From: Candidatus Hadarchaeota archaeon
GTDB taxonomy: Archaea; CAYQAE01; CAYVLA01
Length of the DNA stretch: 64,000 bases
Direction of reading: 5' to 3'
Assembly: GCA_964621445.1 (NCBI GenBank)
Contig: CAZUNO010000012.1
Location: forward strand, 1 to 64,000
In this document: positions 9,469 through 64,000 of the stretch, piece after piece
Layout: each line of letters begins with the position of its first letter
How positions within the stretch are numbered: position 1 is the stretch's first letter
The notes under the pieces: model-generated
Databases searched by the model: none
Told to the model about the DNA's origin: nothing
The model's input: only the letters and a program-made list of their open reading frames with translations
Position numbers and translations under genes: made by a program

Positions 9469-10701
9469 TTGAATTCCGTCCCCAAGGCAAAAACAATCCT
9501 CAGCCGGCATTATCTATGTGATTCCTGCCTGGGAAGGCAGTTCGCCTACTCCCAAGAAGATAAGACCAACGAGGAACTCGGAAAGCAAATCAGGGAAGCG
9601 GCTAGAGAGGGGAGCGAGGGAGATCAGGTAAATCACTGCTATATCTGTCATCCCCTCAGAACCCAGCTTGAGACCCTGCATAAACAGGCGCCCAAAAGAA
9701 TGAAGAATATCCAATGTAACACCTTCCTGGTTGGCATTAGCATATCCGATGAGACGGTGAATAAGGAGGATGAGCTGAGGATGAGACACTCCCTTCTGGA
9801 CAGCGAATCCCTTAAAAGGGAACTCAGCAGGGAACTCGGCAAAAGTCTCTGCCGGGAGCTTGATCTCGAGATCGATTTTGAGAATCCAGATATTGCCATG
9901 ATATTCGACCTTTCCAGCCAACCACCAAGGCTTAAGCTTCAGATCAACCCCCTCTTCATCTATGGTCGTTACAAAAAGCTGGAAAGAGGCATCTTCCAGA
10001 GCCAACGATATTGTGAGAACTGTCATGGCAAGGGATGCGAGCAGTGCCTTTTCACGGGATACAAATCGGAGGATACCGTTGAAACCATGATAACCAGCCA
10101 GCTCGTTAAGGCCTTTGAAGGGGAGGACACCAAGTTTCATGGGGCTGGGCGAGAGGATGTAGACGCGCTTATGCTGGGTGACGGCAGGCCTTTCGTTGTG
10201 GAGATCCTGAAGCCCAGGGTCCGTAATGCCGATCTTGAAAAGTTGGAGAAGCAAATAAACGATAAATGGGAGGGCAAACTTGAGGTCACCGATCTAAGGC
10301 CCTCCTCGAGAAATGAGATGCAACAAATCAAGACTGGGAGATTTGACAAGAGTTACGAAGCTTCTTTCTCATTTTCTGGGACCGTTGAGGAATCGGACAT
10401 CGATAATATTCAGGAAGAGGTGAAGGGAACGGAAATAAGCCAGAAGACGCCCCTGCGGGTTCTCCAAAGACGCAAGAATACTACTCGGAAGAGGATGGTC
10501 AAGGACCTGGAGATACTTGAAATCGATTCCGATGCGGGGACTGGTCGGGTTCGACTAACCAGCGAAAGTGGGTTCTATGTAAAGGAATTCATGACCGGCG
10601 ACCAGGGAAGAACCAAACCTAATATGAAGGACCTATTGGGGGTGTGTGATCTGAAGGTAGAGTCCCTAGATGTGGTGAGGATCCACGACGAGGAAAGTTA
10701 G
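9469..10701 (+). CDS. pus10: tRNA pseudouridine(54/55) synthase Pus10
   Basis: CDSCLGRQF, YGRYKKL, FHGAGREDVD (catalytic Asp), GFYVKEF. Confidence 0.93.
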   Translation: MNSVPKAKTILSRHYLCDSCLGRQFAYSQEDKTNEELGKQIREAAREGSEGDQVNHCYICHPLRTQLETLHKQAPKRMKNIQCNTFLVGISISDETVNKEDELRMRHSLLDSESLKRELSRELGKSLCRELDLEIDFENPDIAMIFDLSSQPPRLKLQINPLFIYGRYKKLERGIFQSQRYCENCHGKGCEQCLFTGYKSEDTVETMITSQLVKAFEGEDTKFHGAGREDVDALMLGDGRPFVVEILKPRVRNADLEKLEKQINDKWEGKLEVTDLRPSSRNEMQQIKTGRFDKSYEASFSFSGTVEESDIDNIQEEVKGTEISQKTPLRVLQRRKNTTRKRMVKDLEILEIDSDAGTGRVRLTSESGFYVKEFMTGDQGRTKPNMKDLLGVCDLKVESLDVVRIHDEES

Positions 10702-12031
10702 AATCGCGGAGCCAGTTCGATACACTCCGGCAATTCAGGAAAGAGATGTGGTAGTTGTGGGCGGAGGGCCTGCCGGAATAGCGGCTGCCGTGGCCTCCGC
10801 CCGAGCTGGAGCCGACACCCTGCTGGTGGAAAGATATGGGTTCCTGGGCGGAATGATGACCGCGGGATTGGTGAACTCCGTAAACGGTTTTAGAAATCAG
10901 GGAGACCCCTCCCCCCAGGCAGTTGCCGGAATTGCGCTTGAATTCGTGAAAAGGATGGAATCGTTGGGAGGGGCTTACCTCCCGGAGAAGGTCCCGTATT
11001 GCGTCATTATCGAGCCCGAGGCCGCCAAGAAGGTGGCCGTGGAGATGGTCCAGGAATCTGGAGCCTCGCTATTGGTGCACACCTTGGCCACCTCCCCGAT
11101 TAAGGAGGGGAATAAATGCTCGGGAGTGGTGGTTGAGAACAAATCCGGTAGAAGGGCCATTCCTGCCGATGTAGTTGTGGACTGCACTGGAGATGGTGAC
11201 ATGGCCGCGCGCTGCGGTGCCAGCTATCAAACCGGGAGATCTGATGATGGAAAAACTCTCCCAGCTCAGATGCTATTCAAGCTGGATTCGGTGGATCTTG
11301 ACGCTTTCTCGAACTGGGTATACAGGCACAAATCGGAACTCAAGCCCCTGTATGACATCGAGCCCCTGGATAAGGTACAGGAGGCGGCCATCGAGGGGAG
11401 ACCATTTGGCGTTTCCGGCTTGAAGATGGAGAGCCAGACCTTCTCATGTGTTACTTGGAGGGACTGGGCTCTTTTTTGGGCCACGGAGCCCGTGGTTATT
11501 GATGGTACTAGGGGGGATGGATTGTCAAAAGCGGAGGAGAAATCCAGGTCCCAGGTATGGAGCCTAGCGGAGAGTCTCAGGGAAATACCCGGATTCGAGA
11601 ATTCTCATCTCCAGCAGTCGGCCGTCCAGTTAGGAGTTAGGGAAACCCGAAGGATAACCGGCGAATACATAATCGATAAAGAAGATGTTCTGGAAGGGTC
11701 GACCTTTGAGGACTCCGTCGCCGTGGGGGCAAATCCAATGGCTTGCCTCGAGGAGAGGAGGATATTGAACCATCCGGGATTTGAGATACCGTTCAGGTGT
11801 CTGCTCCCGCGTGAGATCGAAGGTATCGTCACCGCCGGTCGTTGCATATCCACCACCCACGAAGCTCACGGCTCCACCAGAGCCATAGCAACTTGCATGG
11901 CAACTGGAGAAGCTAGCGGTGCGGCCGCATCGCTCTCAATCGGCTCCGGTGTCATTCCACGACACCTCAGCATACCAAAATTGAGAGAGCATCTAGGGTC
12001 GCAAGGAGCCATTATCAACGTTGTTAATTGA
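10685..12031 (+). CDS. FAD-dependent oxidoreductase (PF12831-like)
   Basis: DVVVVGGGPAG, ERYGFLGG, DCTGDGD, GVRETRR, AGRCIS. Frame stays open upstream of the GTG at 10748 to a probable ACG start at 10685. Confidence 0.85.
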   Translation, partial: TTRKVRIAEPVRYTPAIQERDVVVVGGGPAGIAAAVASARAGADTLLVERYGFLGGMMTAGLVNSVNGFRNQGDPSPQAVAGIALEFVKRMESLGGAYLPEKVPYCVIIEPEAAKKVAVEMVQESGASLLVHTLATSPIKEGNKCSGVVVENKSGRRAIPADVVVDCTGDGDMAARCGASYQTGRSDDGKTLPAQMLFKLDSVDLDAFSNWVYRHKSELKPLYDIEPLDKVQEAAIEGRPFGVSGLKMESQTFSCVTWRDWALFWATEPVVIDGTRGDGLSKAEEKSRSQVWSLAESLREIPGFENSHLQQSAVQLGVRETRRITGEYIIDKEDVLEGSTFEDSVAVGANPMACLEERRILNHPGFEIPFRCLLPREIEGIVTAGRCISTTHEAHGSTRAIATCMATGEASGAAASLSIGSGVIPRHLSIPKLREHLGSQGAIINVVN

Positions 12032-44695: not shown

Positions 44696-44770
44696 AGCGA
44701 GGTGGGGCAGCCAGGAGTGCCCGACGGGCTCATAACCCGTAGGTCAGTGGTTCAAATCCACTCCTCGCTA
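44696..44770 (+). tRNA. Initiator tRNA-Met(CAU), intronless
   Basis: AGCGAGG/CCTCGCT acceptor with A1-U72, G11-C24, three G-C pairs in the anticodon stem (GGG-CTCATAA-CCC), TTCAAAT T-loop; CCA not encoded. Confidence 0.96.
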
Positions 44771-49999: not shown

Positions 50000-51673
50000 C
50001 TATCTCCTTACGGGGAGGGAAAGATAACTACCCATTTTTCTATCGTGGTAAACAAGATTTTGGGAGGGAAGTAAATTTGGGTAGAAGGCCGGGAAATCAC
50101 TGTTAGCAATATCCAATCTAAGTCCAACATCGCTTGATATCGCCTTCCAAACCGGCATCAACTCTATTCTGAATTCGTAGATCTCCCCTGGGACCAGTGG
50201 CTCAGGATCCCTATGGGATCGCCGGTGGGAGCCCCGAAGTCTTCCCGTGGTCAAGAGTATTGATTCGCCGGCCGGTCTAACCTCGGTCAGTTTGGCTATC
50301 CAGTCAACATCCTCTCGATCGCTGGATGAGAATAGGTGAACAACCGGTGATCCGGCTATTTCGATCTTACCGGGCTTTTTAGCTGAGGTATACACCAACA
50401 TCCTCTCTTCCGCCCTTCGGATATCTGAATTTCTACCCGAAACGGTCGGAACCGGATTCTCAGGGTCGTGCTTGATATGGTCCGGTGGGTGGTCCCCCGC
50501 CGGATTCTGCTCAAGGGTTCCCCGGGTTTCTCCTGGTCCCATTTCTCCCTCGGACTGCAGATAATACCTCTTCTCGAGGGTATCGGGGGGCCAGGATTCC
50601 TGAAACCTCCACTCATCCTTGCCCAGTACGAAGATCCTCACCGGTGGTTCTTCCATTACCCCATTATCCTTTCCCTTCAACCAGTGATCGAACCACCGGA
50701 GTTGGACGTTTCTGAGATCAAATCCCTCACGACCGCCATGAAGCCAGGGCCCTATTAGCATCTTCTTTGGTGCTTTGATCTCCATGAAGCTCCTCAACGT
50801 TCCCCTTATGAAATAATCAAACCAACCCCCAAGACAGTAGATAGGGACATCTATCTCCCCGAACAGGTTCCCCGGGGATTTTCCGTACCAGAAAGGACTA
50901 TCGGTATCGTTCTCCACGATCTGCTCAAGGAACTGGCCTCCATAGATCCCCTTTCCACCCAATGCATGTTCGGCCACTCGTCTCGCTCTCGCAAAGTGAA
51001 CCTTTTCCCTCATACCCTCCAAACTTTCATACTCCTGGTCCCGATGAATACCTGGGACCTTTGGAGCAACTATGTGAGCAAGATGGCTTATGGACCATCT
51101 CAGCATCAACATGTTCATTATCCCCCCGGGATAGGCCGCCTCATTGTACATGTTCGCCCCCGCAAAACTGGTGAACATGGCCTTTAACCCCGGCGGGTGC
51201 TCGGCGGCCAGGAAAAACTGGTCCATGCCCAGGTAGGAACCTCCCATGGTGCCAATGTTGCCGTCGCACCATGACTGCTCCCCTATCCAGGACACGGTGT
51301 CGAATCCATCGGGCCCATCCTGATCGAGAAAGCTAAACTCCCCTTCAGAAATCCCGGTTCCCCTAACCTCTGCCTCAACAACCGCGTAACCTCTGGAAAC
51401 GAATTCCCTGTGACATTCCTTATCCCGCCTTTGGGGAGGGTCATTTACGTTATGATAGGGCGTTCTTATCAAAATGGTGGGAAATGGCTCATCCACGTCC
51501 GGACGAAAGACCTCAAGGTAGAGCTTTACCCCATCCCGCATGGGTATGTAGGTCCTTTCAACCTCTCCAGGGTCGTAGAGCCTTATTCCCCAGGCCGGAT
51601 CCAGTTTCTTTGAGGACAAGATCGTATTCTCCGCTGCAGTCATTGGTGAAAATGGGATATATTGTTTTCGCAA
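50000..51673 (-). CDS. CocE/NonD family serine hydrolase
   Basis: MRDGVKL, RTPY, RGTGISEG, GGSYLG, GGWFD, GPWLH. Confidence 0.92.
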   Translation of the reverse strand: MRKQYIPFSPMTAAENTILSSKKLDPAWGIRLYDPGEVERTYIPMRDGVKLYLEVFRPDVDEPFPTILIRTPYHNVNDPPQRRDKECHREFVSRGYAVVEAEVRGTGISEGEFSFLDQDGPDGFDTVSWIGEQSWCDGNIGTMGGSYLGMDQFFLAAEHPPGLKAMFTSFAGANMYNEAAYPGGIMNMLMLRWSISHLAHIVAPKVPGIHRDQEYESLEGMREKVHFARARRVAEHALGGKGIYGGQFLEQIVENDTDSPFWYGKSPGNLFGEIDVPIYCLGGWFDYFIRGTLRSFMEIKAPKKMLIGPWLHGGREGFDLRNVQLRWFDHWLKGKDNGVMEEPPVRIFVLGKDEWRFQESWPPDTLEKRYYLQSEGEMGPGETRGTLEQNPAGDHPPDHIKHDPENPVPTVSGRNSDIRRAEERMLVYTSAKKPGKIEIAGSPVVHLFSSSDREDVDWIAKLTEVRPAGESILLTTGRLRGSHRRSHRDPEPLVPGEIYEFRIELMPVWKAISSDVGLRLDIANSDFPAFYPNLLPSQNLVYHDRKMGSYLSLPVRR

Positions 51674-51729: not shown

Positions 51730-52953
51730 ATGAGAATTCACCTGGTCATCATAATACTCATGTTTTTAATGCCCGCAGTTTCCCCAATGGAGGAAAAGGT
51801 CGATCCCCGGACGGGGAGAATCCGCCTGCTCTACATTGGATCCTCTTACTGGGGCACCAGACCGGGCCTCATATTCCTTTCGGACCCCAAGTTCCGCCCA
51901 ACCTTGATTCCTGCCATCACCGTCTGGTCCACTGGCAGGCAAACATTCGGAGATCCTGAACAGGATATCGCCAGGAGCATGAGGATATATTTCCCGAGAA
52001 CATATGAAGATCTGATAGCCAAGTATGATTTCATCCAGCTATCAGGCTGCAACGAGAACGTAATCAGCGGCAGATGGCAGCGGGATTTCACACGGGCAAC
52101 GAGGGAGGAGGGCCTCGGATTTGCCATGACCGATGGGTATCGAGGCTTCGGTGGCGGTCCCCAGGCCCATTCAACCTGGGAGGGGAGTTATCTTGACGCA
52201 GCACTGCTCCCCGTGAACTCACTCACCAAACAATTCGTAATAGGGCCCATGTGGGCTAGGGTCCTTGAACCAGACAATGACCTCATGAAATCGCTGCCTC
52301 TAGAAAGTGCCCCTCCTCTTATGGAAATAAACGAGGTCACAATGAAACAGGGTGCCACCTTGCTCATGGATATCGAGCCCCAGGCCAAACCCCTAATGGC
52401 ATACTGGGACGTTGGAGAAGGAAGATGCCTTGCCTGGACATGTGATCTTCACGGAGCACCTAGGGGGTCGGGCATCTGGCAAAGGGAATGGAACTACTGG
52501 ATTGATTTCGTACTCAACCTTGATTACTTCGTGGCGGGTATTGAATGCCCCAAGGACCCCATGATGATGCACGCCATAAGGGAAGGATTCTGATCGTACT
52601 CGGAGAGGCTTGCCCTCATAAACGATCTAATATCATTCATACAAAGATTCGGGGCCAGCACCGGGAAGATTGACCAGCACTTGGATATCTTGAAGTCCCT
52701 GAAGAGAGATATCGATGAGTCGTATCTGGATCAAAAGTACCAGGAAACCCTGTCTAAAATGAGGAACCTGGAAAGGGAATTCGAGTCGGCTCAGGAAACG
52801 GCCATGGAGATTAAGGATAATGCACTTCTCTGGGTCTACACGGTCGAATATTTGACGGTTCTGGGAACCATCCTGGCATCTGGTGCCGTTTTGTGGTCCG
52901 TCCTTGTGAAAAGATCCCTTTACAGGGAGGTGAAGACCACCCGTGAGAAATGA
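51730..52953 (+). pseudogene. Membrane-anchored extracellular protein (paralog 3) with an in-frame TGA at 52591-52593
   Basis: ORFs 51730-52593 and 52681-52953 share a frame; the gap translates as SYSERLALINDLISFIQRFGASTG, colinear with paralogs 1 and 2. Confidence 0.8.
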
Positions 52954-52964
52954 TTACGTCGACA

Positions 52965-53662
52965 TCATCTCCATACCAGCCTCAGCCCCTCGATACCAAG
53001 GGGAACTCCAACATACTCATCGGTCCAACCATGGTAATCCCTAAAACTCCGTGGATTCACCCCTGTGAACTCGTCCGCCTCCCAGTGTCTGGGACCTAGG
53101 AGGTTTCGGAGGCTGTTAGTGAGCTTTATTTTGATTTCATTCATGCCCACCTTGAGTTCATCCTCAACGCAAATCCGATATTCCCGCCAGAAAACGTTCC
53201 CTACCTTCTTTTCGTTGACTATAAATTGGGCTACGGTACCCCCGAGCTGTTCAAACTCAAGGTAGGGCCTCCCGGGCCTCCGCTTCTCGATCCTTATTTC
53301 CGTTTCCAGTACAATTGTCCCGGCGAAGAAGGGATATCCATGAGTTCTAAGGTCTGATATATCAGGGCACTCGGACTCCTCCTCCGTGAGAAGAGGGCAC
53401 TTTCCGTCTATCCTAACCGCAAAATCACCAAGAATATAGGCATCCTCGATACTGAGATCCTCTTCCTTTCTCCCCCTGATTATGACACGATTACGCCCCT
53501 TTACCAGGCATCCATCCGCCGAAATCCGTCTGAATGCCGGATCAAGCCACCATGAATTCTCCTGGGGTTCAACCTTTCTCTCGTTGATGTAAAGGTCAAA
53601 CCTCTGGGCATCTTCAATAACCACGGAAACGGAATATGACGAATCATTACGGAACTCGTATT
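52965..53662 (-). pseudogene. 3' part of a GH106-like glycoside hydrolase gene split by an integrated element
   Basis: YEFRNDSSYSVSVVIED...YILGDFAV...GYPFFAG...LTNSLRNLLGPRH; in frame with the 5' part through the repeat AACTCGTATT. Confidence 0.88.
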
Positions 53663-53671
53663 ATGTCACGT
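53653..53671. repeat. Left attachment site (core AACTCGTATT, element arm TTATGTCACGT)
   Basis: Read directly; marks the junction between host gene and AT-rich element end. Confidence 0.88.
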
Positions 53672-53760
53672 GTTAGTGTTGCTTTTGTTCCAATATTAAT
53701 CTAATCGAGATGATAGCTTGATATATTTAAAATTTTTTATAAAAAAAATCCATTAAAATT

Positions 53761-54741
53761 GTGACAATAATTATATTTATTAGGATTCAAAGAAAAAGAT
53801 ATTGGAATCGAGATCTAAAAAAAAATGAGATTTGTTTGAAGTTGAAATCTAAAAACAAGATAGACTTGAAGCTGGCACGGTTTAGAGAAAGGATATCTGG
53901 CCGGAAGTGGAACCCACTGACCGTGAGGCAGTACGTGGTGTGGGCCAGGAGGCTTGAGGCCTGGGCCAAGCTCCATAACCAAGAACCGGAAAGCTTCCCG
54001 GGCTTGATGTTCGACTTCGACACCTATCTCGCCAACCTCCCCCGGAACCCGCCCTGGGGGTCCACCAAGAAGAAGGGCGACAGCTATGCGTATCGGTCCC
54101 GGGTCCAGGCTCTCTCCGCAGCCAAGCTCTACCTACAGCTCATGTACGGGGCCCGCCTGGAGCGGGACGTGGACCAGTTCGTATCCGGGCAGCAACCCCA
54201 GTTCAAGCCGGAGTGGTACACCAGGGAGGAGGCACACAAGATCTTCAGAGACACCGCCAACTGTAGCTACCCCTCCTGCCGGGCCATGACCAGGCTGGGG
54301 TACGACTGCATCCTGCGGTGCGCCGAACTGGTAAAGGTACAGAAAAACGACATAGACATGAACCGAAAAACCCTGGAGGTCAGGGCGGTCAAGCACTCCA
54401 TCCCCAGAGAGGTAGGGTTCACCGAGAAGACCAAGGCCCTGCTGGAGCCGGTTATGGAGAGGCGAAAGACTGGGCACCTGTTCCTGACCTACGAGACCGA
54501 GGACAGGCCGGGCGTCAAGCCCTTCCAGCCGCAGTCATGGAGCAGGCACTTCAGGAGAGAGCACAACGCCAAGTTCCACAAGCTGTGCCGGCATTCGAGC
54601 ATTATCCACAAGCTGCAGGAGGGATGGAGGTTCGGCGATGTCTACCTCCAGGCCAGGCACAGGCACCCCTCCATGACCGCCAAGTACGCGGAGTACGCAG
54701 CGGTAGAGGTCCCGGAATGGGCTCAGGAGACCCCTTTCTGA
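53761..54741 (+). CDS. Tyrosine recombinase / integrase, apparently intact
   Basis: ILRCAEL (R), AVKHS (K), HKLCRHS (H..R), ARH, MTAKY (Y). Real start is probably TTG 53836 or 53842. Confidence 0.88.
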   Translation: MTIIIFIRIQRKRYWNRDLKKNEICLKLKSKNKIDLKLARFRERISGRKWNPLTVRQYVVWARRLEAWAKLHNQEPESFPGLMFDFDTYLANLPRNPPWGSTKKKGDSYAYRSRVQALSAAKLYLQLMYGARLERDVDQFVSGQQPQFKPEWYTREEAHKIFRDTANCSYPSCRAMTRLGYDCILRCAELVKVQKNDIDMNRKTLEVRAVKHSIPREVGFTEKTKALLEPVMERRKTGHLFLTYETEDRPGVKPFQPQSWSRHFRREHNAKFHKLCRHSSIIHKLQEGWRFGDVYLQARHRHPSMTAKYAEYAAVEVPEWAQETPF

Positions 54742-55497
54742 AGGCGGTAAGCCCTCGCCATTAGCGGTGAAGGAAAGGGGGAAGACAAAAACACAAAGCC
54801 TGAAAAAGGTGACCAGCCGCCAGTGAAGAGGAGAAAAAAACTTTCTGAATATTGAAATTATGATCATTTAACTTGGAAATGAGAAGCCCCCCAATCAGGG
54901 ATCTTTATGATGAGAAAAAGGGTTGACCCAGCACCTATAGACAGCACAGGTATCTCCTATAAGAAACTGCCAAACCATCCCGATATCGATTAGGCAAATG
55001 AAAAACACTCAGTGCTACCGCTATCTACCGATTTCCTTACCACCGGGGAATGGAAGCAAGATTAAGATACTGCTCCCCCTAAACAAACTCCGGGGGGTTT
55101 TCTAGTTAACCTCTAACCATAGAAGAAGCTTTCCCGATCCTCTTCCGCTGTGAACAGATTTCGTGAAACAATATAAGATTGGCTATACTTCTGACCTTCT
55201 AGACATGCACAAACGATTCCTGCTCAACCTAGAAAAGGTACAAAATAGGCAGAGATAACGCTATTGCTAGGCGGGGCAAACAGTGAACACGTCAATCATT
55301 GCCGGGTATTGCCTGGGCAGGGCCCTAGTGTACTTCTTGATGGTCATCCATTTTCGGCCTTGGTCTGTATAGCATTAGATGGTTGGTGGACCCTATTATA
55401 AAGCATCCCAGTATGCATTTCGTTCCCGACCCCTTGACGGTAGTAAGAGACCACAAGATGGGGAGGAGACCTATTACCACACGTTTGGCTGGCGGAA

Positions 55498-55713
55498 CTA
55501 GATCCTCGATCTTTTTACTGCCAGCTTCACGTCTTCCCCCCGTACTGTCTTTCTTCCCGCGTGTTGAGCCATCTTTTTAGCCCTGACCGCGACCAGGGCT
55601 CCGTGCTTCTCGAGCAGCTGTGCCAGGGCACGTGTGGCCGAGGCGCTGACACGCTGAGCATGAGCATTGTCTCTGATAATTCTCTCCACTGGGGCTAAAG
55701 GCAGTTCCCCCAC
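55498..55713 (-). CDS. Archaeal histone (HMf family) variant
   Basis: GELPLAPVERIIR...RVS...LE...HAGRKTV..EDV.LA; AGGTGA RBS 5 nt before GTG 55713. Confidence 0.93.
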   Translation of the reverse strand: MGELPLAPVERIIRDNAHAQRVSASATRALAQLLEKHGALVAVRAKKMAQHAGRKTVRGEDVKLAVKRSRI

Positions 55714-55912
55714 AACATTCACCTACAGGGGCAGTTTCCCGGCCCCGTATTAAGGTGTTGCCCCTGACGGGAGTGCCCTGCCGATATGGTTTTCGACCGA
55801 TCTCCGCCCGTGCAGGCGCGGGCCTTCACTCAGCTTGCGCCCGTTGAGCGAGTAGAAGCATTTTCAAGGGAGGGGGATAAGGCGGCATTGTCATTTATGG
55901 AAGGCAAGCCCC

Positions 55913-56249
55913 ATGAAGGCAAATCCACGTTGGGTTAGGTTCTCCTTGGCAGCATTCGCCGTGATGGCTGCCGCAGTCCCTGGCTTTGCGATTCTCGATA
56001 TCTACAATTTTGATTGGTATTACTTTGGAGGAACGGGGGGGGAGAGCTTCGCTGGCAACTTTACTGCCTATCATATTTGGTATGCTCAACTTAGTAGTTT
56101 TCTTTTCAGGCCCTCTTATGTTCGCACTTGGGATTCTAGAGGGATATCAGATTGTTCGTGGTCTTATGGATCCTTACAAGAATCCTAGCGAGTTCCCAGT
56201 GCCTCATACTACAGTAAGGTATGAGAATGACATAAGGGGAGAAATATGA
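55913..56249 (+). pseudogene. Probable frameshifted small membrane protein
   Basis: Overlapping hydrophobic ORFs 55913-56188 and 55986-56249 in different frames. Confidence 0.35.
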
Positions 56250-56866
56250 AGTCTGTACGAAAGAAGGTTTATGGGAACCGAATAATAGTAATTACTGGTC
56301 AGAGTACTTCTTTGAATTGTGGCGGTATGGGAATGATACTCGGCTTCACTAGATCCTTGGAAAACTCCTTCCAAGAATCTAAGATTTTCCTTCTATCAAA
56401 TAATTCTAAACTGGATCAAAGAAGATATGCCTTGGAGAATATTGAGATCGTGCAAAGATCTTGGGTAAGGGCAAAAGATAGAGATTTTCAGAAGTATCTC
56501 TATACTGTTATCTCCTTTCTCCTTATTGTAACTAGGGCTTTCCTTTACCGTTTGGCAGGAGTACTTCATCTTGAGAGTGAAAGAATCTTGGAGTCTACGC
56601 TCTCTGTTTATGTTCGGTCGAATGTTGTTGTCGATATCAATGGGGATTGTTGGTCTCGGCATTTCGATCATCGTTTTTTTCCCTGGTTATTGCCCTTGGT
56701 TTTACATGGGGTGGATTTAACTAGGAGCGGAGGTATTGGTTTGGCATTATATTATCGACCGGTGGTTCTGTTTTCCCTATTTTTGTTCACTGTGCTCCCC
56801 CAGTTGGGGGTCGCCAGGATTACTCCTGATTGTAGTGATCTCGGGGAGTTAGAGCGATTGGAATAA
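56246..56866 (+). pseudogene. Truncated polysaccharide pyruvyl transferase (WcaK-like N-terminus)
   Basis: IIVITG...NCGGMGM...IFLLS.....D...VVVDINGD, after which similarity appears to stop near 56650; much shorter than full-length members. Confidence 0.55.
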
Positions 56867-57922
56867 GGGCAGTACCATCCCAAACACTTGTAGCCTTCAA
56901 GAACAAGGCTCCCGATAGACGTCGGGGCCTCGCGTCAGACAATGCATCTACCCTGGCTCTCGGCCATTGATCTTTGGAGCAAGATGGATAAATGAAATTT
57001 AGGGAGGAGATTATCAGCCTGCTGCCAAAACCTATTTCACACCAACTACAATAGGACTAAAGGACATTGTGCATCCGTAGATACAAAAATGGGTTCCAAA
57101 CTATTTCGATAACACAGGGACTGGAAAACCTAGAAAGAGCTTGGTCTAGATCTCATACCCAAATTCTGCGAGAAAATAGCATGATTCTAGGGCCTACCTC
57201 TCGATGATCACGCCGGGCCGTTCTCACCACATATCGCCGTCCATTGTTTAGTGCCTCTATTGGCTACTCCTCCTGTATCAATCCCTGTCTAGGAATGTTG
57301 GCGCGGATATGCCCGAATAATCATTCCTCATAACTTGCTGAAAGTCCTCCGTAGACATGGTGGACAACGTTCCAGACGCTATCTACTCACCGGTCTCGGA
57401 GTAGGTGACTACAACATTCAGCTTCTGGGCCACACATATGTTCAAGGAAGGATTCCTCCTGCCCTCCACCAGCCTTCCCTCGCCCCACTGGAAGGAGGGA
57501 ACTTTCAATAACAGGATTAGAGCTCAATTATTGGTTGTTCAAGAACGTGGTTCAATCTCTTCATAGCATCAATCATCTCCTTCTGTACTCTGCACCACTC
57601 TCCGTCATCGTCTCCCTACATCAGTAATCTTCTTTCAAACCCTTGAAGCTTTTCTGTCCTCCATCTTGGCCCATGCAAGTCATCATGTGTAATTGGCTAA
57701 AGAACAGCAAAACACACCGCATTGCCGGAACCGCGGTACCGCGAAATAGTTATTAAAACCCCTAATTCAAAAACAGTCAACAAAATCCGTCCAAACCCCC
57801 AAAACCCGCTCATTCAAGCTCAAAAATTGAAATAAAAAAATCCAAAAAACATAACCTTGGATGTCCACCCGCTACAGCGAGGGAATCCCTACGGGCCGGC
57901 CCACTTGGTCAAGAATACATAA

Positions 57923-60265
57923 CTAATCCTCTCTAGTCGTGGGGGGTCGGTAGCTGAAACCCCTTAGGAAACAAATCAGGCCCACGAATAGCAGGGGGAG
58001 TAAAAGTTCAGTAATCGGGAACCACAACGAGTTGGATCCAGCTGATTTAAGGGTAAGCCACTCCTGTTCTCTCTGATATTCCGCCGGGTATGCGGTGTGG
58101 TAGTACTCGGGCCACGGTGATGGTGCGGGGTATTGGCCGCCCAGGGTCAGTGAGTAGAGCTGTGTTTCCTGGTAGGTGTGTCCTCCTAGCTCGACTATCC
58201 ACTCGGAGACGTTGTCACCGTCGATGTCGCCCCACCAGCCTCCGTTCTCCGCCCTCCTGTTCACTGCTACATTCTCGTTCATGTAGTATGCTTCCAGCCT
58301 CCCCGTGGCGCCATCGGTGACTATCGGGAAGGGGGCTAGCCAAAGCACCTCTAGCTCGCCGTCGCCGTCGATATCGGCTATCGTCTGGTAAGAGGACCAG
58401 TAGTTGGCGGTCGCTCCCCACGGTAGTTCCCCGCTCTGGCTCATCTCGGTGAAGTTAACCTCCCATATGACCTCCGGGGAATCCCCGCTTATGTTGAGGG
58501 CGAAACCGGCGTCACTGGACATCACCACCATATCCATACCGCCATCTCGGTCCAGATCCCCGACAGCCTGACAGAGCCTGATTGTGCCCTGCCTGGGGTG
58601 CCTCCATGACCACTCCTCCACGCCCTCATGGCTGATGCTGAAAACAGACGACATCGGCGGGCTGGTCCAGGCCAGCGCCTCGAACTCCCCGTCCCCGTCG
58701 ATATCCGCTACAATCACATTGTTGAACTCCATGTTGGACCCTGTGTCGAACCTCCACCTCTCCAACCCGGACCCGGCATCAATGCAGTACACATTGTGGT
58801 CCTGGCAGGCCCAAACCACCTCGAACTCACCGTCCCGGTCGATATCACAGACAGTGGGATGACCACCGTTACCCGGCAAGGTCTGGAACGAGGTCCAAAC
58901 CAGCTCGCCCTCATGGCTAACGCGGTGGATATAGCCATGGTTGGTGCTGAGAAAGAACTCAACGAAACCATCGCCATCAACATCCAAAGCCTGCGGGGCA
59001 CCAAACATATCCGCCCGATCGGGTTCATCCCAGTACCACACAAGCTGTCCATCACCATTCAGAACATGAAGCCTTCCACCCCTACCAGCCAGACAGAGCT
59101 CATAGACACCGTCGGCATCAACGTCCACCAGGGACACCTTACCCGGGTTACCGGGAAGCCCAGGCATATCGGGAGGAGGATACATCCACTCCAGCCTGGA
59201 ATCCGCATCGACACACCACAGCCTCTTGGTATCACCCCTCCCGTTACCGAACACCATCTCCATCACCCCGTCACCGTCCACATCCCAAACCGTCTGACAT
59301 CCCCGGTGCCCCGGACCAACGATCGAGGAGGTAAGATCACTCATATTGACAATCCACTCAACACCGAGCAGAGGGACCTCCGGTTCCCTGAACTCGGTCG
59401 AGAAATTCACCCCAGCGCTAGCCTCAGTCCGACCATCAGAGACATATACCACCAACCGGTGAACCCCATCCGGCAAGACCAAGTCAATCTTCTTGTCCAC
59501 CACAACAGGGCAGGCATCATTACCGATGTAGCTCTGCCTGGCATGGCCCTCCAGAATTATCTCGCCGTCGACCTCTACCCGCCAGTCAATCTCAATAGGT
59601 TCAACATCCACATCGTACACCCGGAAACAAACCGACCAGAGTCTAGCTAACTCCGCTCCCTGGTTCGGCTCGGTGATAACCAGGTACCGAGTCTCCCCCG
59701 GCACCCTGGACCCGGAGATGTTACCGGCAAGCGTGATACCGGCCCGCGGGTATCTAAGAGCAACCCGACTCATCTCCTGGAACTGATACCTCGGGAGCCT
59801 CCACACAGCCCACAGCCCGATACAGGAACGGGGGCTAAGGTTATACCTCCCATGCTTCCAGATCTTCTCTACAAGCCCATCGCATTCCATTTCACCAAAT
59901 TGTTGGGACCATCGATGGTAGTAACAATCTCTCCACGGGCCGTCATCCACCTTAAACTCCATCAAACGCGGATCAATAACCATATAGCTATCCAGGTTGT
60001 TGCGGAGTCTCATCCAAACGATAACCTCCCTGAACCCCTCAACATCCCCAACGGCAACCAACTCCAGGGTCACCCCATTACTCGTGGCATCCACAGACAT
60101 GTAGGAATGGTTGCCATGGAGTGGTTGTGAAGAACCTCCAGGATCAACGTCAAGGCTAGACACCAAGCTGAAGTTAAGCGGAAGAATTAGAAAAAGGAAA
60201 AATAGAGAATTGAATTTCGTCATCCTAATTCCACTGAACGAAGGATTGTTCCACATGAAAATCAC
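57923..60265 (-). CDS. Secreted/surface protein with FG-GAP / PQQ-like beta-propeller repeats and C-terminal anchor
   Basis: Signal peptide; about 8 DxDGDGxxE repeats; WPEYYH; C-terminal PITE + TM + basic residues. Confidence 0.82.
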   Translation of the reverse strand: MIFMWNNPSFSGIRMTKFNSLFFLFLILPLNFSLVSSLDVDPGGSSQPLHGNHSYMSVDATSNGVTLELVAVGDVEGFREVIVWMRLRNNLDSYMVIDPRLMEFKVDDGPWRDCYYHRWSQQFGEMECDGLVEKIWKHGRYNLSPRSCIGLWAVWRLPRYQFQEMSRVALRYPRAGITLAGNISGSRVPGETRYLVITEPNQGAELARLWSVCFRVYDVDVEPIEIDWRVEVDGEIILEGHARQSYIGNDACPVVVDKKIDLVLPDGVHRLVVYVSDGRTEASAGVNFSTEFREPEVPLLGVEWIVNMSDLTSSIVGPGHRGCQTVWDVDGDGVMEMVFGNGRGDTKRLWCVDADSRLEWMYPPPDMPGLPGNPGKVSLVDVDADGVYELCLAGRGGRLHVLNGDGQLVWYWDEPDRADMFGAPQALDVDGDGFVEFFLSTNHGYIHRVSHEGELVWTSFQTLPGNGGHPTVCDIDRDGEFEVVWACQDHNVYCIDAGSGLERWRFDTGSNMEFNNVIVADIDGDGEFEALAWTSPPMSSVFSISHEGVEEWSWRHPRQGTIRLCQAVGDLDRDGGMDMVVMSSDAGFALNISGDSPEVIWEVNFTEMSQSGELPWGATANYWSSYQTIADIDGDGELEVLWLAPFPIVTDGATGRLEAYYMNENVAVNRRAENGGWWGDIDGDNVSEWIVELGGHTYQETQLYSLTLGGQYPAPSPWPEYYHTAYPAEYQREQEWLTLKSAGSNSLWFPITELLLPLLFVGLICFLRGFSYRPPTTRED

Positions 60266-60300
60266 ATTTACCTAGGAGGCTCAGCTTTCTTATAGGTCCT

Positions 60301-60905
60301 TCAGTCATCGACGAAGAGTCCTCTGGTCGGCTGGTTATTGTCATCTATCTCCAAGTTGTAAATCTCTGTGTTCGAGTCCGGTCCATTCAGATGGGCTCTG
60401 CTGAGGAACCTGAATTTGTACTCAGCTGTGCCGAAATCGTAGTTGACTTGAAGCCACTCCGTAGATTCCGGGATACTACTTGTGGTAGTACTCCAGAGCT
60501 TGCTTCCCACGTTGACCCAGTGCCCATCTTGTTTCTCGTAGACGAAAAGCCACATCCTGAAATAAGCTTTGCTTGCCGTGTCCTGTTCTCTTCATAGTCT
60601 ACTAGCACACCACACTTTGCGTACTCTCCACCGTCCAACTCGTTTTCGTCTGTATACCAATACGCTTCCCAACCATAATAGCCGCTTCCAGTTCCGCTGT
60701 CGAAATCGCCGTATCCTCCGTACATGTATCCATATATCCCAGCCCAATACGTGCACCCAGTTTCACAATCTCCTGAATCCACTTCGAAATGGTCGGCACT
60801 GTAACCAAATGAGGAAGTGTTGTCTATGTCTACTCTAGATATGGCCCAGACAATGGCAGCGCTGCCGATAACCAACATCACTGTCAAGATGGCTTCTCTT
60901 TTCAT
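60301..60905 (-). pseudogene. Secreted protein with one frameshift near 60590
   Basis: MKREAILTVMLVIG signal peptide after a GGGGTGA RBS; the protein-like sequence continues in another frame as EQDTASKAYFRMWLFVYEK...LFVDD. Confidence 0.55.
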
Positions 60906-61019
60906 TTCTTTCACCCCCCTTTGGCCCATCTGGAGGCCATGAGGACAGGTCGAACAACACCCAGGGAACTGTACAGATCCCTCGGTCTGGGAGCTGCGGC
61001 CTTTCTCGGTCCACGTTGG

Positions 61020-61692
61020 CCTGGGTCCTCTTTCTCTCCTCCAGGTACCGTCTTAACGCCTGGCAGGCGTCCTGCCCAAAGAAAGCTCTGTACTCAACGC
61101 CCGACTTCTTTCTAGCTAGCTTAACCAGCAGCGGGGGGTCCTCCAGGCTACCTCTTACCGGGTCCTCCACCATGACGTCGCCGACGTTCAGATCCAGCAG
61201 ATCTCCTATGCTCATACCGGACTGCCATAGGCAGAGGATGATGGCTTTGTCTCTGTTGGCTTTTGCATGGTCCACCAGCTCTCTGACTTGGTCTCGCCGA
61301 ATATTCATCTTCCGGTTTCTCTGTCTTCTGGTCGCTTTCGGTAAGCTCAACTTTTTCTTGTCCACGGGGAGATCGTTGTAGTTCAAGAACTCCGTTATGC
61401 CCGAAAGGTACTTGTGACAGGTTTTAAGAGCGAAACCTTTTTCTCCATTCTTCTTCTCCGCCTGGCTGTGGAGGTAGTTGAAGAACCCCTTGAGGATGTT
61501 GACTTCAGGCCTTTGACGTTTCTCTATATCCTTTCTCCTGTCCTCGGCGACAACCCTTATCAGTCCCTCTCCCAAGATTTTGTGCCCTCGCTCCTTCTCC
61601 ATGTAGCCCTGGAAAAGCTGGAACGCTCTCCGGTACGCTGTCCGCGTGGACTCATTCTTAGATTCAAGGAAGCTCTCAGTCCTGTTGTCCAT
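61020..61692 (-). pseudogene. C-terminally truncated tyrosine recombinase
   Basis: N-terminal STRTAYRR domain, RDKAIILCLWQSGMSIGDLLDLNVGD, RKKSGVEY, ALRRYLEER; no HxxR or catalytic Tyr follows. Confidence 0.8.
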
Positions 61693-61737
61693 GGTACCAC
61701 ACCCAACCTAAACACCCAAAGTAAAAATGTAACTAGT

Positions 61738-61756
61738 TAATGAACTAACTCGTATT
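61738..61756. repeat. Right attachment site (element arm TAATGAACTAA, core AACTCGTATT)
   Basis: Read directly; 55 bp upstream of the start of the right recombinase. Confidence 0.88.
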
Positions 61757-63905
61757 CGACTTCGAACTCAGCCCCGTTATTCAAGGAGGAAACCGCCTCC
61801 TGGACCTGCCACACTGGCAGAATCTCGCTCCATTCGCCAGATCCATTCACTGGTCTCCACCTGGCGAAATCCATTACCGCCTGATTGGGTTGAGAACGGG
61901 ATATCTTCCAGGAAGAATCGGGTTCAGTTATATGCAGAGGCTCATCGAGCACCTCCTCTGCCTCTCCATCCACCTGAAAATCCGGATTGACCAGAAATAG
62001 TCTCCCCTGACCACCGGCCAGGTCGAAGGTCGTGTTCCGTGGACGAGATAAAACCTCACCCGTGTGGGGAACCAGCTCCTGGACCTCATCCTCGAAATCC
62101 ACATTCAGCCTCATAGTTTTCGAGTAATGCATATTTACCATGAAGCTTATGGTTGAATTTCCCAACCTTCGCCTATGAATTAGTAGATTTCGTAGAGGTG
62201 CTCCTGACACCCATTCAATGGAAGGGCCGGGGCTAAGAAACGGTTTTATTTTGGACGCCAGACTGCGTTCGGAGTTTTTAGTTTTTATCGCCCGGGCCAG
62301 CAGATCCTGGAGCTCGCCTGATTCCTCCCCCTCGATCAGATATGGTACCTCCCCAACCAGGATGATCTCACCACCCGATTCCGAGAGATCTTTGAGCAGC
62401 TCGAAGGTCGATCGCCTGATGCTTTTCATGGAGGGAATGACCACTACCCGGTATTTCTGGCGTCCCAGGACCAATTTCCCTCCACGAACCTCCCCATGCT
62501 TTTCAATGATGAACTCCTCACCGTACTCAAAATCTATCTGACTTCTAAGGAGATTCCAGGTCAGCTCTCTAAATTTCTCAAAGACATCCTCAACCCGATC
62601 CGGTCTGGATGGGCTATACTCGGCCCAGGCGCTTCCTATGGGATGGATGACTAGCACATCAACCAATCTATCTCCATGCGATAGGACGTAACTAAGCCTG
62701 GTGAAATAATCGGCTACCATGCGGTTATATTCCCACCAGGGCTGATGGGGAGATAGCGTGGGTGGATAGTCCCTCTTTCGAGCCCCCCTCAAGGAATATA
62801 AAGCCAGGTGTTGGCACAGAAAATTTACCCCCAGCGCGTATTGAAAGTTGCCTATCCATCTTCTATCATGAAAGTCCAGCGCCTGTCCAGAGGTGCCGTA
62901 GCTCTCGGATAGAACCCTTCTCTTGCCGAGCTGAGAGGAAACCGAGGCAACCTGCTTCTCTACCCAGGGATTATGTATGCCCTTTCCCAGGTGGTCTATT
63001 CCTGGCTGTTGCATGTATTCATAGTGTTGCATGGCACTCCCAATGCAGTGGATCTGGCCCAGAAGAGAATCCTCCCACTCGTAGTGCCCCGTATAGCTCA
63101 GTGACCGTTCCTCGCACCAATCATGGACCTGCTTGCTGAAAGCCTCCACGAAAAGCCGGGTCAATGTAGAGTAATAATCGTACCTTACCTTTCTGAATTC
63201 TCCTTCATCGAAAAATAGGCTTTCAATATGATCCGCTAAATTGTATCCGTGTTCCACCTCAAACCTATCAACCATGTCCTTTGCCCAGGGAATAACAAGT
63301 TTCCCGCTCTGGGAATGATGGGTGGCATACTGCGGCTCGTCGGTAAATATGCCCGGTACAGTTTCACCAAACTCGTTTCCCAGGTGAATCTCATATAGTT
63401 CGTGGGTTGACTCCAGGAAGCAACCAACTGCATCGGGGTTTAGTAGATTTGGGATATGTCCCATCGGCATGACCTTGGCGAAGAAATCGAAGGATTGCAT
63501 CTCCCCGTCGATCTCCATCTCCCTCCTTGCCAGGGTATTCAGCGGAGGCCTGGAATCCCGTGATGGCCTGCAATATAGAAGCATGCTCCTGAATTCCGGG
63601 GCGAGCTTGGTGACTTGTCCTCCACCCTTTCCGCTGGGCCAACCATCCTCATCATATATCCAGAACCTGCCTCCGATCTCCTCGAACTTCCGAACGCAGG
63701 ATTTGACTAGATTGAACCAACGGTTGCTCAAATAGGGGGTCACTAGTCCCGTCCGGGCATGGAAGAAGAATCCACCCCACCCCTGACAATGGAATTCCTC
63801 TATGAACTCCAGGAGCCTTTCCTCCTCTAGCTGATCATTGACTGAAAAGAAGGGAGCGGGACGGTATTGGACAGGTGGTTCCTTGAATCGGTCTAGATTC
63901 ACCAA
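61747..63905 (-). pseudogene. 5' part of a GH106-like (alpha-L-rhamnosidase-like) glycoside hydrolase gene split by the element
   Basis: RPAPFFS, IYDEDGWPSG, GIFTDEP, PGIDHL, SESYG, RKRDYPP. GGAGGAGG RBS before TTG 63905. Ends AEFEVEYE then LVH* read from element sequence. Confidence 0.88.
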
Positions 63906-64000
63906 ACATCCTCCTCCTCTCGCCACATCTCCGGTGTTGATAAATGCGCATGTGACCGTGCCCTTTATCAATCTGGTAACCTGCCGTAAGACATGGATTT

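Follow-up and report, generated by a model that had tools for sequence, protein, structure and literature searches.

The known classes of archaeal histone variants are defined either by residue 49, as in the capstones, or by additional interfaces, as in the bridging histones, and the field is still young. A stacking-defective histone of Thermococcus kodakarensis, HTkA G17D, was reportedly engineered and described by Mattiroli in 2017. Here, we analyse a natural histone gene, hereafter the variant, which lies within an integrated element of about 8.1 kb on a contig of an uncultured Candidatus Hadarchaeota archaeon (assembly GCA_964621445.1, contig CAZUNO010000012.1, positions 1 to 64,000; this 64-kb stretch is referred to as the window). 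In our judgement, the gene probably, if by no means certainly, codes for a functional, accessory HMf-type histone, a paralog derived from the host lineage and carried as cargo of the element.

For HMfB, the accessible sections of a published analysis place G16 at the stacking position, give K30-E61, E34-R65 and D14-R48 as stacking pairs and include an interface of L46, H49, D59 and L62 among three criteria for hypernucleosome formation; they also list, in Table 2, natural histones with a bulky residue 16 from Odinarchaeota LCB_4, M. jannaschii and M. methylutens (Henneman 2018, PMC6136690). The available part of a preprint on the Asgard histone HHoB names Gln16, Lys29, Glu32, Asp36, Arg50 and Lys63 as stacking residues (10.1101/2025.05.24.653377). 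In simulations, as far as the accessible text goes, the G17D exchange opens the gyres, with four-helix bundles and DNA binding persisting (Bowerman 2021, PMC7990501), and the corresponding portion of a study on capstones characterises these proteins by a residue 49 that is acidic or hydrophobic and destabilises the tetramer (Stevens 2020, PMC7776873).

Fold, residues and charge of the variant

By profile, length and its modelled tail-less alpha1-L1-alpha2-L2-alpha3 fold (L1 and L2 denoting loops 1 and 2), the variant is an HMf-type (nucleosomal) histone. It matches the Pfam family PF00808 (E 3.5e-15, 56.4 bits, cut-off 21.4), and a phmmer search of the PDB returns HPhA (5e-17), HMfA (1e-16) and HMfB (1e-15). 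An AlphaFold2 (AF2) model with a predicted local distance difference test (pLDDT) score of 93 contains helices at residues 6-17, 24-51 and 59-68, and its top Foldseek matches are HMfA, HPhA, HMfB and 5t5k, with template modelling (TM) scores of 0.85-0.93; superposed on 5t5k, it reaches TM scores of 0.88/0.93 at a root-mean-square deviation of 0.8 Å. A viral origin of the histone was considered and rejected, since no relative was found in IMG/VR or among the GenBank phage records and PHROG yields no match. The open reading frame (ORF), at 55498..55722 on the minus strand, would encode 74 amino acids if read from its first GTG at 55722. However, the GTG at 55713 is the better-supported start, because it is preceded at a distance of 5 nt by an AGGTGA box, a layout matching that of the host core histone, in which GGTGAT and 5 nt are followed by ATG.

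In a HMMER alignment to HMfB, His18 stands opposite Gly16, within an AHA motif, and HMfB takes a one-residue gap in loop 1. The DNA-contact residues R11, R21, K55 and T56 (R10, R19, K53 and T54 of HMfB) are present; an alignment of 50 sequences shows no variation at R21 and T56 and almost none at R11 and K55. The tetramer interface is preserved as well: H51, D61 and L64 correspond to HMfB H49, D59 and L62, and the replacement of L46 by M48 is conservative, so that the dimer-dimer interface agrees with that specified in Henneman 2018. At the L1 stacking interface, a small residue is missing both from the variant, which has His18, and from the host core histone, which has Asn. The protein is also highly charged. 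It contains 15 Lys and Arg but only 6 Asp and Glu residues, corresponding to a net charge of +9 and an isoelectric point (pI) of 11.5, and is the most basic among 13 histones compared; the host core histone has a net charge of 0 and a pI of 6.6. These results bear out much of the initial annotation of this DNA, made without database searches, which had recognised a histone alignable to HMfB, an AHA loop with one extra residue, intact DNA-binding and tetramer residues and a very basic composition.

The residues that set the variant apart coincide with the inter-gyre contacts of HMfB and the stacking residues of HHoB. From sequence alone, the counterparts of the HMfB inter-gyre pairs are Q32-K63, K36-K67, which brings together like charges, and D15-Q50, as against E32-K63, E36-R67 and Q15-R50 in the host core histone. 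Four derived residues, H18, Q32, M48 and Q50, are common to the gene in the window and to a second copy on another contig of the same genome (C15), whereas the six other histones of the family, introduced below, have Glu at position 32, Leu at 48 and Arg or Lys at 50. K36 occurs only in the window copy, the other family histones having Glu or Asp. The acidic side of the stacking 'velcro' would thus be gone from the variant.

Host-lineage histones and the second gene copy

The family considered here comprises four genomes, the host (G000) and its relatives G001, G002 and G003; a further genome, G004, belongs to the same class. A whole-genome search of the host with PF00808 recovered three full histone genes and one relic. 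The housekeeping (core) histone lies on contig C9 (C9:64933-65121), beside pdxS, pdxT and a gene for a pyridoxal phosphate (PLP) enzyme. Its loop, K-Q-N-A-N-A-E-R-V-S, has the same extra residue as that of the variant and Asn at the Gly position, and a core histone of this type is also present in G001 and G003. A second paralog with the loop K-[DE]-N-A-N-[IV]-D-R-V-G is found in each of G001, G002 and G003. Taken together, none of the eight full-length family histones has Gly at the stacking position, and in all eight loop 1 is one residue longer (N-A-N/H-A/I/V). Of the two G004 histones, one reads N-A-N-A in a loop of normal length and the other N-A-G-A, and most histones outside the family lack the insertion and the N-A-x-A motif. 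The relic, at C22:45197-45259, consists of 22 codons of a core-like histone C-terminus with a stop at its end and no histone frame upstream, a dead copy.

Across 233 histone domains taken from 215 proteins, the aligned position is occupied by Gly in 173 cases, Asn in 14, Asp in 8 and His in 2; of the two His cases, one is the query and the other a protein of ambiguous alignment. His at the Gly16 position is rare, therefore, but a residue other than Gly is not. Within the family, the length of the loop and the missing Gly are traits of the lineage, the step from Asn to His alone being new. The proposal that Gly had been replaced by His in the variant needs to be revised accordingly: the exchange is from Asn to His, in a lineage already devoid of the Gly. 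The host core largely shares the loop of the variant, reading NANA for NAHA at equal, extended length, an outcome that the initial annotation had itself named as counting against its reading. The chromatin of this family may not form closed hypernucleosomes at all.

The second copy of the variant, on contig C15, shows 91% protein identity to the window copy. The two loci share about 470 bp of DNA (473 nt by blastn, 85.6% identical overall), comprising the gene, a TATA-like box of 16 nt ahead of it and some 240 nt of flank on its 3' side; TTAATA sits in this box, which is the sole stretch common to both copies upstream of the gene. A look for transcripts yielded no RNA run that contains the region. 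There are only two copies of the 3' flank in the genome. Between the copies, 13 synonymous and 8 non-synonymous changes have accumulated, with a ratio of non-synonymous to synonymous changes per site (pN/pS) of 0.22, and both are therefore maintained by purifying selection. Both Ala codons flanking His18 have changed synonymously, with the His itself unchanged. The changed codons are unevenly spread, 17 of 18 lying within codons 4-40, with hardly any differences in the 3' half of the gene and, apart from a 39-nt indel, in the flank; the KRSRI tail of the window copy results from a 1-nt indel. This mosaic identity points to a duplication of older date on which recent gene conversion was superimposed.

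Immediately 3' of the histone, an ORF for a hydrophobic protein of 51 amino acids (55325-55480, minus strand) is open in both copies despite the 39-nt (13-codon) in-frame indel. It has no Pfam or PHROG match and could be a small co-transcribed protein or a chance frame. A structured RNA in the 3' flank was rejected, because Rfam gave no match over 53000-58000 at E values up to 1 and the predicted fold is less stable than that of shuffled sequences (z = +2.72).

The C15 copy shows that the variant is not exclusive to the element, as its description as element-encoded had implied: there is no PF00589 match on contig C15 and no integrase in the 15.6 kb around the copy. Of the neighbouring genes, only one is matched by position in G001 and G003, and another belongs to a family of 87 to more than 150 copies per genome, a neighbourhood that does not distinguish a native locus from an island. 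A hugely expanded family of membrane-anchored GATase1-like proteins (PF07090 with a coiled coil and a transmembrane tail) is represented in the window (51730-52953), at the C15 locus (9609-11764) and on many other contigs. More than 150 tblastn matches in G000 were obtained for its 90-amino-acid tail ORF (52681-52953); for a full-length member, the number of matches per genome ranges from 87 to more than 150 in G001-G003.

A copy on a contig without integrase is what would be expected if the variant were an ordinary, redundant host paralog, of which a segment of about 470 bp was copied between C15 and the island by recombination or gene conversion, its proximity to an integrase being incidental. 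The mosaic identity fits such recent conversion, the codon composition of the variant is host-like, and a further ORF of the element, encoding an FG-GAP repeat protein, likewise belongs to a host gene family. Redundancy is harder to reconcile with the purifying selection on both copies and their four common derived residues, with the fact that the variant is the most basic of the histones compared and with its distribution, as it was not found in the other three genomes of the family, which have a different second paralog. We regard this explanation as unlikely, though it deserves serious consideration. The shared loop insertion and the host-like codon use, with a G+C content at third codon positions (GC3) of 0.60 in the variant and 0.55-0.60 in the flanking host genes as opposed to 0.83 in the integrase gene int1, point to a capture of the variant from the host lineage rather than its arrival together with the foreign-looking int1.

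The integrated element

The features of the locus are compiled in Table 1. The description of the surrounding DNA as a mobile element was confirmed by the 8.1-kb insert with its 10-bp repeats, the contiguous target gene in G003 and G001 and the presence of tyrosine recombinases at both ends; the element is real, compositionally mosaic and partly decayed. Exact copies of the repeat number two in the 64 kb, compared with 0.08 expected, and two were reached in none of 100 shuffles. The left repeat lies exactly at the point at which homology to the intact gene of the relatives breaks off. In both G003 and G001, tblastx detects the homologs of 52965-53660 and 61842-63971 contiguously in a single gene, which is stop-free throughout in G003. 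The N-terminal fragment shares 54-59% identity with genes of G001, G002 and G003 that run on into the C-terminal part, and in the window it ends in three foreign codons and a stop just within the element. Moreover, the homologs of a peptidase gene (50000-51673 in the window) and of the 744-amino-acid ORF lie about 800 bp apart on one contig of G003. Removal of the insert and one repeat restores the reading frame as ...EFEVEYEFRNDS..., compared with ...EFEVAYEFKTVV... in G003.

Table 1. Positions of the histone gene, the element borders and the associated features in the window
Feature	Position	Strand	Remarks
Element body	53663..61746		8,084 bp (8,094 bp with one repeat copy); missing from the same gene in G003 and G001
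Left 10-bp direct repeat, AACTCGTATT	53653..53662	+	Target duplication or attachment (att) core
Right 10-bp direct repeat, AACTCGTATT	61747..61756	+	Second junction
Disrupted GH106-like gene, C-terminal fragment	52965..53662	-	tblastx matches to G003 and G001; weak Glyco_hydro_2_N2 match
Disrupted GH106-like gene, N-terminal fragment	61737..63971	-	744 amino acids; PF17132 Glyco_hydro_106, E 3.1e-9
Histone variant gene	55498..55713	-	71 amino acids from GTG at 55713; first residues MGELPLAPVERIIRDNAHAQRVS
Shine-Dalgarno-like AGGTGA	55719..55724	-	5 nt ahead of GTG 55713; kept in C15 copy
TATA-like TTAATA	55748..55753	-	Putative promoter, from alignment of the two copies
Duplicated 3' flank	55256..55497	-	About 99% identity with C15, not counting a 39-nt in-frame indel
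int1, tyrosine recombinase	53848..54741	+	Apparently intact; PF00589 E 1.7e-12; PHROG integrase families
int2, second tyrosine recombinase	60997..61692	-	Remnant; PF00589 model positions 3-88 only
FG-GAP repeat surface protein	57923..60265	-	780 amino acids; FG-GAP_3 E 2.2e-17
206-amino-acid ORF	56246..56866	+	GC3 0.41; no Pfam or PHROG match

Both junctions are spanned by contigs of two public DNA runs from a single study; these contigs argue only against a chimeric join, the runs possibly being the source of the assembly. A joint that skips the element was not found in the contigs of three runs, contigs being prone to drop rare variants. A 39-nt skip, an inserted A and T>C differences in the run contigs represent the C15 copy mapping onto the window.

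Archaeal elements usually integrate into tRNA genes. The target of the present one is a protein-coding GH106-like gene, and the only tRNA gene of the window is located at 44696-44770. The element may be classed with the pNOB8-like type of tyrosine-recombinase elements, which have an intact integrase. In elements of the SSV type, the att site lies within the integrase gene, whose halves are split to the two borders. Such a 'suicidal' integrase element was considered and rejected here, since the repeat lies outside both integrase ORFs and the C-terminal half of int2 is found nowhere in the genome. A third, internal copy of the repeat, as in tandem elements, was likewise dismissed, only matches with two mismatches being present, at chance level. 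A 16-nt inverted repeat pairing the int1 start with the 3' end of the histone gene was dropped too, as roughly 0.5 such pairs are expected by chance.

Although the int1 ORF opens at 53761, its homologs begin near 53848. The protein covers positions 3-167 of the 172 of PF00589 and is full length in comparison with homologs of 295 amino acids; its translation shows the R...K...HxxR...H...Y pattern, by which the putative catalytic residues are assigned. Homologs with 69-74% identity and lengths of 261-295 amino acids occur in four MSBL1 single-cell genomes, and int1 was found neither in G001-G004 nor in 400 sampled archaeal genomes. To judge by its GC3, int1 appears foreign to the host genome. 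Two adjacent, imperfect 33-nt direct repeats (73% identical; 53802-53868) lie in the AT-rich stretch at its 5' end and may be recombinase arm sites or promoter elements. The remnant int2 matches residues 1-233 of homologs of about 431 (426-433) amino acids, the catalytic C-terminal half being absent; tblastn with these homologs covers only 61692-60997. The nearest known relatives of int1 and int2 (66-74% identity) are from MSBL1 single-cell genomes obtained from brine pools, which suggests a traffic of elements between the host and MSBL1 lineages or a closer kinship of the host than the names imply. Relatives of the element were not found in genome, viral and metagenome collections with int1, an alignment of six int1 homologs and P0067 as queries.

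The FG-GAP protein has paralogs with 39-61% identity on at least seven other host contigs; the host-type surface-protein genes would be cargo of the element, or the island would be a composite. The final 60 amino acids of the 206-amino-acid ORF are 65% identical to a stretch on C20. The following segment of about 1 kb (56867-57922) contains no ORF of at least 50 amino acids apart from two short overlapping ones, and 158 nt of it are 84% identical to contig C72; it is probably decayed or repeated DNA within the element. The initial annotation had singled out the histone as one of few intact cargo genes. This assessment is correct insofar as int2 is truncated and two gaps are free of ORFs of at least 50 amino acids, but it overstates the decay, given that int1, the FG-GAP gene and several other ORFs are open.

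The histone gene lies within the element, 756 bp from the intact int1 and convergent with it, an arrangement compatible with a function as architectural cofactor that bends or wraps att DNA for integration or excision, much as bacterial integrases are assisted by IHF and Xis. Its high positive charge would favour tight DNA binding. Set against this are the C15 copy, which lacks an integrase partner, and the contrast between the foreign composition of int1 and the host-like composition of the histone gene, according to which the two did not arrive together. We consider such a role very improbable.

Proposed chromatin function and relation to known systems

If the variant is an accessory histone derived from the host lineage, as we favour, the element would have inserted with a 10-bp duplication into the GH106-like glycosidase gene and carried the histone as cargo. 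The protein would dimerise and wrap DNA like other archaeal histones, and it would probably mix with the host histone. His at the L1-L1 contact, the exchanges E32Q, R50Q and, in the element copy, E36K, and the net charge of +9 would then combine tight DNA binding with poor self-stacking, giving rise to short or open complexes. The variant would most likely modulate chromatin, either locally or by its dosage, on the element or the host genome. Since the host histones already lack Gly, a functional difference between them and the variant would lie in the charge and the stacking contacts rather than in the Gly position. Weaker self-stacking of the variant is a reasonable prediction from its residues.

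A more specific version holds that the element captured a histone of its host lineage and remodelled it into a strongly basic paralog with a stripped stacking face (H18, Q32, K36, Q50), which packages or marks the DNA of the element or else binds to the host histone at its acidic stacking face. We hold it to be doubtful; if true, it would constitute an archaeal counterpart of the plasmid-borne H-NS paralogs.

The initial annotation had further envisaged that the variant caps or loosens host chromatin. As a dominant chromatin breaker acting in trans, it would disrupt host hypernucleosomes and lift the silencing of the element. The bulky residue at the L1-L1 contact and the loss of the stacking charges are in line with this idea, and, in the portions of the reports that are available, HTkA G17D as the only histone abolishes protection beyond 90 bp (Sanders 2021, PMC8155482; Bowerman 2021, PMC7990501). 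However, the accessible data also indicate that G17D beside a wild-type partner leaves the micrococcal nuclease (MNase) ladder nearly unchanged, which argues against a dominant loosening effect, and that far fewer genes change in T. kodakarensis when the wild-type partner is present (PMC8155482). In addition, the host core histone, with its Asn and longer loop, may not stack tightly enough to offer a structure to break. As for capping, the capstone marker is absent: H51 is equivalent to His49 and neither acidic nor hydrophobic, which excludes a capstone role by this residue and leaves the proposed cap without its expected signature. Dominant chromatin breaking appears improbable to us, because G17D is not dominant beside the wild type and the host histone itself lacks Gly; a dominant cap is unlikely as well.

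Several observations weigh against the reading of the variant as accessory cargo with altered stacking. With a host core that is also non-Gly, the predicted contrast in stacking would be only one of degree. The equivalence of His18 and Gly16 depends on the placement of the loop insertion, for which we relied on the conserved A-x-A motif and the HMMER alignment, not on superposed structures. The gene may be an ordinary host paralog copied into the island, because the C15 copy has no integrase nearby. Phylogenetic placement among the host histones was only partly successful: in a tree of 43 rows, the variant and its C15 copy form a supported clade (97/94), but the pair branches from a polytomy on a long stem of 0.66, such that no donor can be named. 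Furthermore, P0005, a histone from metagenomic data in which the loop has the normal Gly, shares 71% identity with the variant, more than the 63% between host core and variant, although P0005 is also 74% identical to that core. Finally, the contigs contain neither an empty site nor a circle, and the element, whose composition is mosaic and whose second integrase is dead, may have lost its mobility.

What remains, as far as the sequence allows us to say, is a paralog under selection that is highly basic, has a stripped stacking face and resides on an element with well-defined borders. Current views are not overturned, plasmid-borne histones and bulky residues at position 16 being already on record. 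The locus nevertheless represents a cleanly bounded case in which a nucleosomal histone lies within a small integrated element of known borders and known empty site, and it draws attention to a whole lineage in which all histones lack the 'essential' Gly. In literature titles and abstracts, no description of a small integrated element of archaea with a nucleosomal histone was found, a search that did not extend to subscription journals and supplements, and no paper combining MSBL1, Hadesarchaea and histones was found.

The known histones on mobile DNA closest to this case are those of the M. jannaschii plasmid pDSM2661_1 (NC_001732) and the Methanosphaera plasmid pNP174 (NZ_CP118754), which are of the HMf type and 46-52% identical to the variant. 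They have a canonical Gly loop and reside on large plasmids, whereas the variant is encoded on a small integrated insert that bears an integrase. The nearest functional analogy is provided by the H-NS paralogs of bacterial plasmids, in which mobile DNA likewise carries a paralog of a host chromatin protein; these belong to an unrelated fold and another domain of life, and the 'stealth' or backup function demonstrated for them, as described in the accessible literature, extends to the variant only by analogy.

Among the chromosomal histones, the natural proteins with a bulky residue 16 resemble the variant in being non-Gly and, in the available part of their description, in being predicted to form open or floppy hypernucleosomes (PMC6136690). 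The capstones Msp_0383 and Msm_1260 share with it the character of a low-copy paralog, proposed in the accessible text to limit oligomer length (PMC7776873), but they are altered at residue 49, where the variant retains His, its changes affecting L1 and the stacking face instead. HTkA G17D, as far as the accessible reports describe it, also combines a bulky L1-L1 side chain with an intact four-helix bundle and DNA contacts (PMC8155482, PMC7990501). It is, however, an engineered protein with Asp, whereas the variant is natural, has His in a longer loop and coexists with other host histones that are also non-Gly. With HMfB, HMfA and HPhA (PDB 1a7w, 5t5k, 1b67, 1ku5), finally, the variant has fold and length in common, at 55-57% identity in the structural alignment and TM scores of 0.85-0.93, and it differs from them in its loop 1, which is one residue longer, in His for Gly16, in Met for L46 and in its net charge of +9, the HMfB pairs K30-E61, E34-R65 and D14-R48 having become Q-K, K-K and D-Q. 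A natural, selected pair of paralogs thus differs from its host core histone at the L1 contact, in stacking charges and in net charge, and not at the tetramer interface, and the comparison between this pair and the core offers a ready test of the weight that stacking and charge carry in archaeal chromatin.

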